From a virus (lineage: Duplodnaviria; Heunggongvirae; Uroviricota; Caudoviricetes): a DNA stretch of 64,000 nt. Below the pieces are notes generated by a model. That model was not told where the DNA came from and made no database searches. It was given only the letters and a program-made list of their open reading frames with translations. Shown piece by piece: positions 19,767 through 24,119 of the stretch. The position numbers were made by a program, and so were the translations under genes. The stretch lies in IMG/VR virus record IMGVR_UViG_2778261571_000004; one strand, written 5' to 3'. Within the stretch, counting starts at the first letter, position 1. The number at the start of each line of letters is the position of its first letter.

Positions 19767-20381
19767 CTAATCATACTTTGAGGTATTTATAACCAGGATT
19801 TTGTTTGTATAAATCTTCTTAATATCCCATGTGACATTACCGGAATACCATTGACCGTTATATACTTGGTTTCCAGTTGCACCGGTCATAGTTACATAGA
19901 CAGGTCTGTCGTAATCGGTTCGTCTATAGTTATAAACCCCAACCATAGCAGGCATTACTGCGCACGGATACCCCATATCTATTGTAAATTGTGGGTCAGT
20001 AATAGTGATAAGTTTTGCATCAAGGGGCATCATCTCACCGTGATACACCATTGCGCCTGCGCTGTTATACATGGCAATGCCATAGCCAGAATGTGGTAAC
20101 ACCATATCAGAAAAAGCATAAACTGTTATTGTTCCGGGGCTACCATTTACCTGATGCAATCTGAGAGCATTGTATCCGTTACTATGTTCATGAATAAACA
20201 TCATGTTCGCCTTATTGCTGCTTTTTATGAAGAAAAAGCATGATTTGTTTGATGGGATTGATGTTTGAAAAACAGAACCTTTAGATGTAGACATTGTCCC
20301 TTTATTAATCAGATTTTGCGGAGTAAATTCAGGACTCATCCACAAACTTCCATCTGATTGAGTAATTGACATCCCGAACAT
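19767..20381 (-). CDS. hypothetical N/T/Y/G-rich protein (start at Met20 of track ORF 19767..20438)
   Basis: ATG lies 2 nt after the stop of 20384..20665; AT-rich region distinct in composition from neighbours. Confidence 0.4.
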   Translation of the reverse strand: MFGMSITQSDGSLWMSPEFTPQNLINKGTMSTSKGSVFQTSIPSNKSCFFFIKSSNKANMMFIHEHSNGYNALRLHQVNGSPGTITVYAFSDMVLPHSGYGIAMYNSAGAMVYHGEMMPLDAKLITITDPQFTIDMGYPCAVMPAMVGVYNYRRTDYDRPVYVTMTGATGNQVYNGQWYSGNVTWDIKKIYTNKILVINTSKYD

Positions 20382-20383
20382 AA

Positions 20384-20665
20384 TTATCCCCAGTATGTGT
20401 ATATGTAAGAACCAAGCCCCGTATATAAATTTGACCAACTAACCGTATTTCCATTAATAGTAACATTTGGAACAGGTAAATTGATGTAGTTGTCGTTGTT
20501 AAGAGGCATTAATGACCACACGGCATGTAGTGATTTACCCGGTGGCGGATTAGAGTACGTCTTAGAGCCTGATGACGCCGTAAATCGATCAAGAAAAAAA
20601 ATAGGTGTAAGGAAGCCAGTAACGTTAATTCCTTTATTGTTGTAAATCCCTGTACCGTATGCCAT
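20384..20665 (-). CDS. hypothetical N/T/Y/G-rich protein (93 aa)
   Basis: ORF tightly coupled to downstream ORF; AT-rich. Confidence 0.4.
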   Translation of the reverse strand: MAYGTGIYNNKGINVTGFLTPIFFLDRFTASSGSKTYSNPPPGKSLHAVWSLMPLNNDNYINLPVPNVTINGNTVSWSNLYTGLGSYIYTYWG

Positions 20666-20719
20666 TTTTCACCCTTGTTTTTATCAACACAATATGGCCG
20701 ATCATGCGGCCATATCAGA

Positions 20720-21289
20720 TCAATTAGAGCTTTGAAAGACTTTGTGTGGTTGTGTTGCGAGGTTATGTCGATGGCTTAACTCACGCATCATGTCTTCAAG
20801 GCGACTCTTTGTGTCGTCGAGTTGGTCGGCCATTGCTCCCAAAAGCTGACGAACGGCCATCGGATCATCGCTGTTTAGTGATGGCATTTTATAACCCGCC
20901 TGAGAAGACATAAGATTGAACGCAGACATCAACATCGTTAGAGAGGATTTAAGCCCAGCAATTTCACGATCTTTGCTGGCAATAATCGTCTCACTCTTGT
21001 TAGTGTCATCAGTTCGTTGAGTCTCGCTCACCATATCCAAAGTCGCCTGCAACTTATCAGCGCGCTCTTTTTCAGCAAGATAATGAACACCGAAATGATG
21101 TGCTAAAGCTACAACCTGAGTTGGCTCTTCAAAGGTGGACTCAAAATTAAGTGCTGTAACCACTCTCTCAAATATGGAAACGTCTTCTATTCCTCGAAGA
21201 ATGGCTAACATTTTGACCAGTTCATTAGCATCCATTTCTTCGAATAAGGCGTTTTGTTCATCAGCTATCGCTTTGCATTTCTTACACAT
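20720..21289 (-). CDS. hypothetical protein (189 aa)
   Basis: AGGAAAAACAC-ATG initiation context shared by backbone genes; motif-1 upstream. Confidence 0.5.
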   Translation of the reverse strand: MCKKCKAIADEQNALFEEMDANELVKMLAILRGIEDVSIFERVVTALNFESTFEEPTQVVALAHHFGVHYLAEKERADKLQATLDMVSETQRTDDTNKSETIIASKDREIAGLKSSLTMLMSAFNLMSSQAGYKMPSLNSDDPMAVRQLLGAMADQLDDTKSRLEDMMRELSHRHNLATQPHKVFQSSN

Positions 21290-21325: not shown

Positions 21326-21586
21326 TTGGCTTTATTGTGATGTGGCATAAAAGGGGAGCAAGCTAAACGTAAAGGTGCAAACTCTCTATTTCGGTCAACG
21401 AAACACAAGGGCCATTTGGCCCTTGTCATTAACACGTTGCTTTACGGACTAGCGGATAAGCGAAGTAGATCGCCAGACCAATGAGGACGCCATCAGAAAT
21501 GACAGACATCATCTTTCCCGTAAAATCCACCAACACCGCCATCACCAGAAGAGCAATGACGGTCACAAGCCGGAATCTCTCAAGCA

Positions 21587-22012
21587 TTAGAGATAAGCAT
21601 CCAGTGACAACTGAAGCGCCTGGGCGATCTTTTTCAGTGCCTGCTCTTCTTGTTCACCAATGCCGTCCTGGTCGGCAATATCAAGGCACAGACACAGAAC
21701 ATCGACCGCCTCTGGAGTGCCCGCAATATCAGCCAGCTCACGCATAGCCTGCGCATTCGCAGAACGAGGGGACGCTTCGTAACGAGCACGGATATTGGCG
21801 CTCATTTGGGCAATTTCACCAGCAAACGGAGAAAACGCAGGCAGAGCTGCAATTGTCTTCTCAAGAATGGCAATTTCTTTTGCGTCACATGTGCCGTCGG
21901 CATAGGAGATCATGTACGCGCCCCACACGGTGGCCTCAACCGCATCACGGTTCTCCATTTTTTTGACTTCGATAACAGCTTTACGAGTTTTCTTTTTGAA
22001 GAAACCTAACAT
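21587..22012 (-). CDS. TerB-like domain protein (tentative)
   Basis: Segment YADGTCDAKEIAILEKTIAAL resembles TerB-type acidic motif; weak, from memory. Confidence 0.35.
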   Translation of the reverse strand: MLGFFKKKTRKAVIEVKKMENRDAVEATVWGAYMISYADGTCDAKEIAILEKTIAALPAFSPFAGEIAQMSANIRARYEASPRSANAQAMRELADIAGTPEAVDVLCLCLDIADQDGIGEQEEQALKKIAQALQLSLDAYL

Positions 22013-22033
22013 GTGTTTTCCTTTTGTTATTTG

Positions 22034-22052
22034 TCAAAACAAGTTGTTTTAT
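22034..22052 (-). promoter_or_regulatory. motif-1 palindrome (AAAACAAGTTGTTTT), approximate
   Basis: Recurrent motif. Confidence 0.45.
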
Positions 22053-22105
22053 AGTTTCATAAATTGCTTACGCAAAGATGGTCAATGCATATGCACTAAC
22101 AGCCG

Positions 22106-22294
22106 TCAGAAATAACCAAGTACCGAACCGACTGGAAAAACAAAAATCCCTACTACACGAGCCAGAGTCATGCCAGCCTGAAACTTGAGATCACCTGAGC
22201 AAACGAGTTTTATAATGTTGGATACCCAACCGGCGGCCATGAGAGCCAGAATTGCCAGCCAAATTTTCCCAAAGTGATTTGAAAGCCAGTTCAT
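22106..22294 (-). CDS. small membrane protein (62 aa)
   Basis: Hydrophobic segments; AAGGTGG SD; ATGA overlap with stop of 22291..22542. Confidence 0.45.
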   Translation of the reverse strand: MNWLSNHFGKIWLAILALMAAGWVSNIIKLVCSGDLKFQAGMTLARVVGIFVFPVGSVLGYF

Positions 22295-22542
22295 ACAACC
22301 ACCTTAGTCACAACATGATCCTGAGTAACTGGATGAACTTGAGGTATCGCATCCACCGTCATCCCATCCAGAGTGACAGGACGCTCTACTGTAGTGGTGG
22401 TAATTGTCGTCGACGGAGGTGTGGTGATGGATGAACCCGGCATCAAAAGGCTCTGGCCGGCTGGAACGGCTACCGTCGCCAGTGAAACTATAATGAGAAC
22501 GTAGGCCATTGGTTTCAGCCTCTTTCTTTGAAAATTTTCCAT
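22291..22542 (-). CDS. small secreted/membrane-anchored T/P-rich protein (83 aa; possible start at internal Met)
   Basis: Basic N-terminus + hydrophobic core + AVPA-GQS signal-peptidase-like site; AAGGA SD; embedded out of frame in 22304..22798. Confidence 0.35.
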   Translation of the reverse strand: MENFQRKRLKPMAYVLIIVSLATVAVPAGQSLLMPGSSITTPPSTTITTTTVERPVTLDGMTVDAIPQVHPVTQDHVVTKVVV

Positions 22543-22798
22543 TCGAACTGTCCTTGTTGTTTTTCTCCTTCACTAAAGGCCGTGTACTTTTCGCTTCGCG
22601 TGAAGAACCAGAGGCAACAATCGCCCCCACGTTCGCAACAACTGACGCTTGATTATCTAAACGTTCATTCAGCAACCGAACGGTAGTCTCTAGTTCATCA
22701 AGACGTGACATAACACGACCGCTAAACAATTCGGCCAAAATTTGACGTAAAGAACGAGGACGTTTAGTTGCAGAAGTGAAATAGGTTTGACGTGCCAT
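22304..22798 (-). CDS. hypothetical protein; N-terminal about 80 aa coiled-coil-like, C-terminal half low-complexity and overlapping 22291..22542
   Basis: Two long overlapping frames; only one may be real over 22304..22542. Confidence 0.35.
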   Translation of the reverse strand: MARQTYFTSATKRPRSLRQILAELFSGRVMSRLDELETTVRLLNERLDNQASVVANVGAIVASGSSREAKSTRPLVKEKNNKDSSNGKFSKKEAETNGLRSHYSFTGDGSRSSRPEPFDAGFIHHHTSVDDNYHHYSRASCHSGWDDGGCDTSSSSSYSGSCCD

Positions 22799-22943
22799 GT
22801 GGACTCCATCCAGTGTCAGAAAGAGTTGCGGCTGGCGATTGCCAGCCGCCTTTCTCGTTCCATCCTGGAACTGTGTCTTACCGACACATTGTCATCCTGA
22901 CGCTGATAAGATACATGATTTAAAATGATAGGTAAACACTTAC

Positions 22944-23537
22944 TTACCACTTGTTATAAACAAAACCAATATCTTTCTTGTGAGGCATATCTGCTGCTGA
23001 AAAAGCTGCGATCTTCGCGAGTCGATCACATATTTCATTTTCACGATGCCCGGCGTGACCTTTAACCCACTTCCAGCGAACATTATGTCGACTTGCGGCC
23101 TCATCCAGACGCTTCCACAGATCAACATTCTTTACCGGTTTTTTGTCAGAAGTCATCCATCCATTGCGTTTCCACCATTTCATCCACTGTGTCATGCCGT
23201 TTTTCAGATACTGGCTATCAGAGTGCAAAATAACGTTGCATGGATATTTCAAACGCTCCAGCCCGATAAGTGCGCCCATCATCTCCATGCGGTTATTGGT
23301 GGTGCTATGAAAACCATCTGAGAACTCGCGTTCCTCACCACGATACTGGAGAACGATACCGTAACCGCCCGGGCCACCCGGATTTTTAAGGCAAGAGCCA
23401 TCACTAAAGATTTTCACGGTTTTGAGCTGGGGATTGAACTCTACGACAGGCGTTGTGGGATTGGTGCGGGGAGAATTTTTGTTTTTGGCTTTTTTGCGAG
23501 TTTTTGCTTGCGATCGGGCTGGTGTCTTCGTCGTCAT
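22944..23537 (-). CDS. rnhA: ribonuclease HI with lysine-rich N-terminal extension
   Basis: DGSC..GPGGYG..TNNRMEL..HSDSQY..VKGHAGH..NE.CD motifs as in bacterial RNase HI; AGGAG SD before Met18 of the track ORF. Confidence 0.8.
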
Positions 23538-24119
23538 ATAAACTCCTGAATCAAGCGCCGCGCCGATTTTTTCCTCGCGCGTGCGCACACGCGTGCGTGT
23601 TAATAATTATTAAAATAAACAAATTACTTCCCAGAACAGGTTTTTATAAACCTGAACTGAACGAACGAAGTGAGTGAAGTTCACCTCGAACGAAGTGAGA
23701 GGTTGTCTTTTCAGGTAATACTCTCCCAGGGAGGTGAGTATAAAATTCCTCACCAACCTGGTCGTTTCATAACCTGAAAAGCTATGGTCTAAGTCTACTG
23801 CCAGCTTAGACTTGGGAAGTTATGGATGACAGCACCCCAGAACCGAGATCTTCCCACACTTTATGAAGGGGAGTACTGGATTCAACCTCTCGAAACACCC
23901 CAGACTCGACAATCATAAAGTGACCCTTGTCTCTGCTCACTTTGGTTCCCCCTTCCCCGACACCTATACGGCACCGGTTCTACGCTGGTAGTGAGCTTTT
24001 TTAAACCTGACGCCAGTGACGCTTACCCCCACCCATCAGGTCGAGCCTCCAGTCTACGACTGGAAACTATCATATCTTAGCACTTACAATTCACTTTATG
24101 AATAGTTTGTACTTATCTA

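Follow-up and report, generated by a model that had tools for sequence, protein, structure and literature searches.

Conserved out-of-frame overlap of two probable protein-coding genes in SSU5-like phage-plasmids of Enterobacteriaceae

The stretch of DNA analyzed in this study (64,000 nt, IMG/VR record IMGVR_UViG_2778261571_000004; hereafter the window) represents an SSU5-like phage-plasmid. Right after the RNase HI gene rnhA, in the early/DNA-metabolism part of the element, it carries two reading frames, here termed genes A and B, which share 239 nt of the same strand in different frames. We conclude, with a probability of about 0.72, that A and B are a genuine overlapping protein-coding gene pair conserved across the SSU5-like phage-plasmids of Enterobacteriaceae, in which case both frames would be translated. 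All coordinates refer to the whole window, and the genes of this finding are all located on the minus strand (Table 1). An earlier note, made from the sequence of this DNA, had described an out-of-frame overlap of approximately 240 nt, a Shine-Dalgarno (SD) sequence and a signal-peptide-like N-terminus belonging to the shorter frame, and translational coupling of that frame through ATGA to a small membrane protein. These features were recovered: the two frames overlap as described, B is preceded by AAGGA and begins with a basic region and a hydrophobic segment, and the TGA stop codon of B overlaps the ATG of the next gene, C.

The gene pair and its conservation

Protein A consists of a basic N-terminus, a long helix and a tail rich in Ser, Gly, Asp, His, and Cys that ends in Cys-Cys-Asp. 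Its AlphaFold2 (AF2) model contains a helix at residues 17-70, with block means of the predicted local distance difference test (pLDDT) of 64-89 over residues 11-60 and values below 50 for residues 67-164; the helix of about 50 residues probably forms a coiled coil. No transmembrane (TM) segment was found in A (maximal Kyte-Doolittle mean over 17 residues of 1.03, no segment ≥1.6). Divergent homologues differ in sequence and keep the composition of the tail, including His runs (HHHH) and a C-terminal (C/S/G/A)-Cys-Asp. Part of the His content follows from the Thr codons of B, as ACC ACC becomes CAC CAC (His-His) when the frame begins one base earlier. Based on composition alone, the His/Cys/Asp-rich tail may bind metal.

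Protein B has a basic N-terminal region (RKRLK), one hydrophobic segment at residues 9-34 (Kyte-Doolittle mean over 17 residues of 2.24) and a Thr/Pro/Val-rich remainder with a conserved LDGMxxDxIP motif. The segment is a predicted Sec-type signal peptide or signal anchor, and B would accordingly be exported. In the AF2 model of B, which is of low confidence, residues 3-24 form a helix and the remainder is disordered. As the models of both A and B are of low confidence beyond one helix each, a fold search was judged meaningless.

In total, 77 related loci were taken from phage, viral-contig and genome collections. At the nucleotide level, they comprised 51 distinct versions of the A/B region, which fall into five to six clades (E. 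coli, L041 type, L049 type, SSU5/Kluyvera/Klebsiella, Cronobacter, and Klebsiella). Both frames were intact in 49 of the 51 versions. Protein identity between clades amounted to 40-55%, several indels were present, every one a multiple of three in length, and the distance from the stop codon of A to that of B was constant at 13 nt. Three deeper lineages (L085, L083, and L079) showed the same synteny after the RNase H gene and kept both frames, as did two relatives of L079 on plasmids of K. oxytoca and K. quasipneumoniae (L088 and L089). In these more divergent lineages, A matched its profile at an E value of only 1e-4. The +1 frame of each of them contains a B-like open reading frame (ORF) with its own SD sequence and start codon. 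Its product has a basic region at the N-terminus, a single hydrophobic helix, a stretch rich in Thr and Pro and an L(D/E)GM motif, and A terminates with Cys-Asp-stop in these lineages as well. The SD sequence and start codon of B, checked among others in SSU5, L079, L083, and L085, were present in 13 of 13 lineages compared; the start codon was mostly ATG, and GTG in L079. The GGA-containing SD sequence of A was kept in the 11 aligned lineages.

A HMMER scan of 1.8 billion representative proteins with the A profile returned 21 matches, the weakest few of which are doubtful; all those with examined context belonged to SSU5-like elements, and the scan provided no functional lead. No relatives of A or B were found outside SSU5-like elements.

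Variants in which A and B are fused by 1-nt indels were encountered rarely (P0012-14, L056, L076, and L090, the last also P0046/L090). The fusion clusters had 6, 1, and 1 members compared to hundreds for intact A, and L090 came from a contig with 2x coverage. A natural fused form was rejected in view of this rarity and the low-coverage origin of L090. The loss of one T in the CCTTTTGATG run (22443..22452, minus strand, coding sense) was observed in three sequence backgrounds (P0012, P0013, and P0014). It joins residues 1-117 of A to residues 33-83 of B and truncates B after 32 residues, and could stem either from frequent mutation at this site or from errors in sequencing the homopolymer. Furthermore, mosaic A/B sequences, in which the 5' part is of the L049 type and the 3' part of the E. 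coli type, were found in IMGVR_UViG_2576861193_000004 (L064), P0008, P0011, and P0015. Their breakpoints differ, which indicates recombination inside the gene pair.

Coding signals in the two frames and alternative explanations

Selection was estimated by a self-written OLGenie-type analysis of the ratio of nonsynonymous to synonymous substitution rates (dN/dS), using all pairs of 49 sequences and a bootstrap over codons. In addition, synonymous resampling was carried out, in which one protein was kept fixed and synonymous codons were redrawn from the codon usage of the element. Over the whole overlap, the dN/dS of frame B was 0.54 (95% confidence interval (CI) 0.40-0.70). In codons 1-35 of B, the signal/TM part, it was 0.37 (95% CI 0.25-0.51), and B is under purifying selection in this part. 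B is clearly a gene. In the middle, indel-rich Thr/Pro part neither frame was constrained (A 1.0, 0.53-2.0; B 0.75, 0.49-1.23). Codon usage in the overlap was intermediate between coding and off-frame usage in both frames, with the higher score for the B frame in 12 of 13 lineages. The closer match of the B frame to genomic usage suggests that this frame is the older one and that the tail of A arose by overprinting.

For A, the signals lie in the maintenance of its frame and in its C-terminal end. When the B protein was fixed, the A frame stayed open with a probability of 0.015-0.13 in each of nine lineages, values that cannot simply be multiplied as the lineages are related. At codons of B whose synonymous T-ending form would introduce a stop codon into A, T occurred in 0 of 276 cases (approximately 11 alignment columns), compared to 40% at comparable safe sites. 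At the end of A, variation among 13 lineages is silent in A only (TGT/TGC, GAC/GAT, and TAA/TGA), and the same changes alter B (Val/Ala, Thr/Ile, and Lys/Glu/Asp). By our own count, these 9 nt allow 27 single-base changes, of which only 4 leave A unchanged, and the chance that three distinct changes are all silent is approximately 0.001. Several of the changes are seen repeatedly, in different clades; the three third positions of the 9 nt that are synonymous in B do not vary, and right past the stop codon of A variation returns at all positions. Since the same pattern is present in lineages without gene C, the ribosome-binding site of C does not explain it. In the last 27 codons of the overlap all classes of change were rare, and the B-synonymous rate (dNS) was 0.17 compared to 0.40 in the first third; such a drop would follow from constraint on both frames in this stretch. 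A conserved RNA fold was rejected as the reason for the conservation of the 3' part (RNAalifold -3.5 kcal/mol, no covariation, no Rfam match). The overall pattern for A, a tail that is kept open, a constant C-terminal end and a remainder that is free to vary, fits a disordered linker leading to a short functional end.

Several results weigh against a functional A tail, or against two coding frames altogether. Over the whole overlap the dN/dS of frame A was 0.98 (95% CI 0.68-1.5), that is, without constraint at the amino acid level, and in B codons 1-35 it was 1.5. In the last 27 codons the value of 0.48 for A was only marginal (0.20-1.26; P = 0.055), and that of 0.64 for B was not significant (0.29-1.44). 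The 5' part of A outside the overlap served as the control; the values there were 0.46 for frame A and 0.72 (0.57-0.90) for the non-coding +1 frame. The latter probably reflects a bias of the method to somewhat below 1, and marginal values were therefore given little weight. What speaks for A is the maintenance of its ORF and a short C-terminal stretch. In the fusion variants the tail of A is lost, at least in the assemblies. Searches of Pfam, NCBIfam, PADLOC, and PDB sequences with A, B, and C gave nothing above threshold. Finally, RNA of genes 83-86 of Escherichia phage Cyrano, a close relative described below, was at background in LF82 lysogens (PMC9928086, supplementary table).

One alternative is that only B is functional in the overlap, the useful part of A being its N-terminal helix and its 79-codon tail a tolerated read-through, since the Thr/Pro/Val/Ala-rich codons of B seldom create stop codons in the A frame. 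The dN/dS values of A, the predicted disorder of its tail, the 1.5-13% chance of an open A frame from the composition of B alone and the existence of tail-losing frameshifted variants all agree with this explanation. We nevertheless consider it unlikely: the A frame is open in at least nine divergent lineages, each at P ≤0.13, T is never found at B-synonymous sites where it would create a stop, the changes in Cys-Asp-stop are silent in A alone, lineages without C included, and the B-synonymous rate is depressed in the last third. The converse, that only A is functional and B is a chance ORF within it, is very unlikely. It could draw on the reverse resampling, in which the B frame was open in 3-72% of cases given the tail of A (P = 0.03-0.72), and on the lack of a B annotation in five annotated phage records and pYPE3-114k. 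Significant purifying selection was, however, found on B where A shows none, the SD sequence, start, basic N-terminal region and hydrophobic helix of B are conserved in all lineages, its stop is coupled to the start of C, and genomic codon usage fits the B frame better than the A frame.

The +1 position of B and the fusion-mimicking DNA variants at one T-run in three sequence backgrounds would also be compatible with programmed +1 ribosomal frameshifting, in which the functional product combines the N-terminal domain of A with the C-terminal part of B. However, the only candidate for a slippery run, the CCTTTTGATG sequence found in the E. coli clade, is not conserved in SSU5, Cronobacter, and Klebsiella sequences, and a conserved slippery site or stimulator was not seen. 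In addition, B retains an SD sequence, start and signal sequence that a fusion would not need, and the C-terminus of A itself is conserved, which leaves this mechanism highly improbable. A sequencing or assembly frameshift in one ordinary ORF, a possibility raised in the earlier note, could cite the few database entries that are A-B fusions by 1-nt indels, such as the T loss in CCTTTTGATG. It is excluded for practical purposes, because the same two frames recur across clades and deeper lineages: dozens of independent assemblies from independent projects and hosts, complete genomes and plasmids among them, show the identical arrangement, which persists through multiple-of-three indels and protein divergence above 50% (identities of about 40-55% or less), and the fusions are few and in one case from a contig of low coverage.

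The earlier note had also considered a lysis module. According to this explanation, A and B would be a spanin-like or other lysis device, embedded in the manner of Rz/Rz1, with C as the holin. In its favor, the distal half of A contains B in the +1 frame, the helix of A resembles a coiled coil, B combines a signal sequence with a high content of Pro and Thr, and the small protein C has two TM segments. However, o-spanins, which are lipoproteins of the outer membrane, carry a lipobox, [LVI][ASTVI][GAS]C (PMC6139136). B of the window contains no Cys, and the family alignment shows no conserved lipobox, in agreement with the earlier statement that it is not a canonical o-spanin. A lacks the N-terminal TM domain of an i-spanin, an integral protein of the inner membrane. 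Of four defining spanin features, only the embedded out-of-frame architecture is present. Moreover, the locus lies among early/DNA-metabolism genes and not in a lysis cassette: holin, endolysin, Rz, and Rz1 of Cyrano are located at 26.7-28.2 kb, approximately 52 kb from its A/B locus at 79.8-80.5 kb, and the spanins of SSU5 are already included in a spanin survey (PMC6139136). C as a holin was ruled out by its context between B and the TerB gene, its absence from several lineages and the position of its homologues in Aeromonas, Vibrio, and Octadecabacter phages, where they occur singly, as small TM genes surrounded by early or structural genes and outside lysis cassettes. A role in lysis is accordingly a remote prospect. 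We retain the overlapping gene pair as the explanation of the locus.

Locus, leader and neighboring genes

The features of the locus are compiled in Table 1.

Table 1. Genes and signals at the A/B locus (window coordinates)
Feature	Position	Strand	Remarks
Gene A	22304..22798	-	164 amino acids; phrog_10411; ORF call
Gene B	22291..22542	-	83 amino acids; +1 frame relative to A; phrog_15659
A/B dual-coding overlap (proposed)	22304..22542	-	239 nt; A residues 86-164 = B residues 1-79
Gene C	22106..22294	-	62 amino acids; two hydrophobic segments; phrog_6006
TerB-family gene, like P1 TciA	21587..22012	-	141 amino acids; Pfam PF05099, phrog_632, Cyrano annotation
DUF3927 small membrane protein gene, like P1 TciB	21429..21587	-	52 amino acids; Pfam PF13064, phrog_1470
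SD of A, GGAG	22804..22807	-	5 nt before the ATG of A
SD of B, AAGGA	22551..22555	-	8 nt before the ATG of B; within Lys-Asp codons of A
SD of C	22300..22305	-	includes the stop codon of A
Last codons of A, TGT GAC TAA (Cys-Asp-stop)	22304..22312	-	
Alternative start of B, second ATG	22509	-	would give a 72-amino-acid version
Structured leader, rnhA to A	22828..22901	-	hairpins; GGA motifs in two loops
Terminator-like hairpin directly after the DUF3927 gene	21405..21426	-	

The locus is 97.7% identical to that of Cyrano, an SSU5-like phage-plasmid of E. coli LF82, and 601 nt of it are 100% identical to the E. coli plasmid pYPE3-114k. Of 5,426 complete E. coli genomes, 210 contained it, with few exceptions on plasmids of approximately 105-115 kb, and it was also detected on many plasmids of Klebsiella, Salmonella, and Cronobacter. 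Copies on plasmids amount to roughly 660. Its surroundings encode a Dam methylase, RNase HI, several small membrane proteins and a DUF4942 methylase. A is annotated in Cyrano, PhiR41_1, SSU5, pJN2-26, and ST13-OXA48phi12.3 as well as in the RefSeq entry of pYPE3-114k, and is called hypothetical in Cyrano, PhiR41_1, SSU5, and pYPE3-114k. No annotation of B was found in these five phage records or in RefSeq pYPE3-114k, and two Klebsiella plasmid records list neither gene. PHROGs contains both as families of unknown function, B from its second ATG. A literature search for the gene pair found nothing, and a query for tciA/tciB returned mostly unrelated papers. The genes of this locus were not counted among the morons of the element (PMC9928086). 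The background RNA level in LF82 lysogens mentioned above points to expression outside stable lysogeny.

The conserved leader between the stop codon of rnhA and the start of A (22799..22943, minus strand) is predicted to form three small hairpins, at 22891-22901 (GUCA-GGA-UGAC), 22873-22887 (GUGUC-GGUAA-GACAC), and 22857-22871 (GUUCC-AGGAU-GGAAC), and one terminator-like hairpin at 22828-22849 with a GC-rich stem of 9 bp and a poor U-tract. Compensatory changes were observed for 7 of 18 predicted pairs (11 lineages). GGA in two of the loops and at the SD sequence of A resembles CsrA/RsmA binding sites, which makes these positions candidates for such sites. In Rfam, the leader gave a weak CsrB-like match only (E = 0.08, 16.8 bits compared to a gathering score of 71), and no tRNA-like element was found in it. 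A promoter scan revealed no sigma-70-like minus-strand promoter near A, the interval between the hairpins and A included, and A/B are therefore probably transcribed from upstream through the leader hairpins.

We propose that one transcript enters from rnhA through the structured leader and offers two starts in two frames. Initiation at the SD sequence and ATG of A would yield a cytoplasmic protein with a basic N-terminus, a helix of approximately 50 residues, a disordered tail of approximately 95 residues and an invariant Cys-Asp end; initiation at the internal SD sequence and ATG in the +1 frame would yield B with its 83 residues, exported or membrane-anchored. Where C is present, ribosomes that end either frame could re-initiate on C, since its ATG overlaps the stop codon of B and the stop codon of A lies inside its SD sequence.

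The earlier note had placed a TerB-like protein upstream and had grouped it with the overlapping frames in one module. The TerB assignment holds (PF05099, 31.6 bits at a cut-off of 24.4; phrog_632, E = 1.5e-63); the position does not, as the gene is downstream of A, B, and C on the coding minus strand, 93 nt after C. Its stop codon overlaps the start of the DUF3927 gene (TAATG), the TciB-like product of which matched PF13064 with 47.4 bits (cut-off 25) and has two hydrophobic segments. The hairpin that follows is the probable end of the transcription unit. Among the fetched loci, the constant features were A/B and rnhA just upstream. Downstream of A/B, C was followed by TerB and DUF3927 in 48 loci, C occurred alone in 14 (SSU5 type) and neither C nor TerB was present in 8, and the L079 and L083 types carried TerB without C. 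C is missing in the L079, L083, and L005-type lineages, and TerB is missing after A/B in SSU5-type and L085-type loci. C and TerB/DUF3927 are facultative neighbors that come and go independently of A/B and do not form an obligate module with it. It follows from the lineages without TerB/DUF3927 that A/B does not depend on these genes.

Some further observations were made in the vicinity. An ORF of 39 amino acids (22690..22809, minus strand) lies in the same +1 frame as B and overlaps the start codon of A, and in the Cronobacter lineage (L057-L063) the +1 frame is open through all of A, with 166 codons joined to B. RefSeq marks the RNase HI gene as frameshifted in the identical pYPE3-114k (window 22944..23604, minus strand). 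The longest RNase HI ORF of the window (22944..23588, minus strand) starts with GTG, and its domain at residues 55-197 is intact, so that any frameshift touches the N-terminal extension only. The stretch downstream of TerB/DUF3927 (19767..21289, minus strand) encodes members of phrog_5508 (189 amino acids), phrog_557 ("outer membrane protein", 93 amino acids), and phrog_425 ("membrane associated protein", 223 amino acids), the latter two genes overlapping by 55 nt. It looks like a cluster of accessory envelope-related genes.

Possible role and comparison with known systems

The pair may have an envelope-related role. Our best guess is an accessory function that would involve both cytoplasm and envelope, or metal, and that would be expressed outside stable lysogeny. 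A more specific picture is a co-encoded two-compartment pair of a kind not described so far, in which the tail of A would bind metal or a partner, B would be exported, the leader would possibly exert CsrA-like control and both might act on the envelope or on metal/tellurite-type stress while the phage-plasmid develops; we regard this picture as speculative and, as a whole, rather improbable. If it were true, the shared DNA would keep A and B inherited and expressed together, and the pair would show cleanly, for a bacterial virus, how overprinting gave rise to a functional part of a protein.

Phage genomes are known to contain long out-of-frame overlaps, and gene callers permit one gene per DNA stretch. 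SSU5-like phage-plasmids are common, also in clinical Enterobacteriaceae, and B was missed by the annotations examined. The internal contrast of the pair, in which constraint acts on one frame early in the overlap and apparently on the other late in it, makes A/B useful for benchmarking the detection of overlapping genes and for studying overprinted disordered segments. A false lead is also removed, as A/B is no second spanin or lysis cassette.

In architecture, A/B resembles lambda Rz/Rz1: a longer gene, the product of which includes a coiled-coil-like helix, harbors in its distal half, in the +1 frame, all or almost all of the gene for a small exported Pro/Thr-rich protein. SD sequence and start are separate for the two genes. 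B begins at 0.52 of the length of A, and embedded o-spanins occupy a position of approximately 0.5-1.0 of the host gene length (PMC6139136). Unlike in lambda, A has no N-terminal TM segment and B no lipobox Cys, a separate Rz/Rz1 is present, the pair lies outside the lysis cassette, B extends 13 nt past the stop codon of A and there is no sequence similarity to spanins.

The window shares with tciA/tciB of phage P1 a TerB and DUF3927 gene pair with overlapping stop and start, here downstream of A/B/C; in contrast to a fixed association, this pair is absent beside A/B in SSU5-type and some other lineages. A further lead for the function of A, and not a test of it, is SlyD of E. coli with its His/Cys/Asp-rich metal-binding tail. 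In all lineages, His, Cys, Asp, Gly, and Ser are overrepresented in the disordered tail of A, for example as HHHH runs and CCD ends. Unlike a true relative of SlyD, A has no sequence homology to it, and its composition is partly forced by the Thr codons of B.

Overprinted viral genes, that is, overlapping genes that arose de novo, reportedly encode disordered proteins (a finding attributed to Rancurel and co-workers, 2009, reference 42 of PMC6139136). A phylogenetic stage with one frame only was not found for A/B, and the direction of overprinting is taken from codon usage alone. In other respects the pair agrees with such genes: two different frames of one strand overlap over a considerable length, disorder is predicted for both products in the shared region, one frame is nearer to genomic codon usage, and the compositions are skewed and complementary, with Thr/Pro/Val in B and Ser/Gly/Asp/His/Cys in A. 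A/B represents a well-supported new example of an overlapping, presumably overprinted gene pair.

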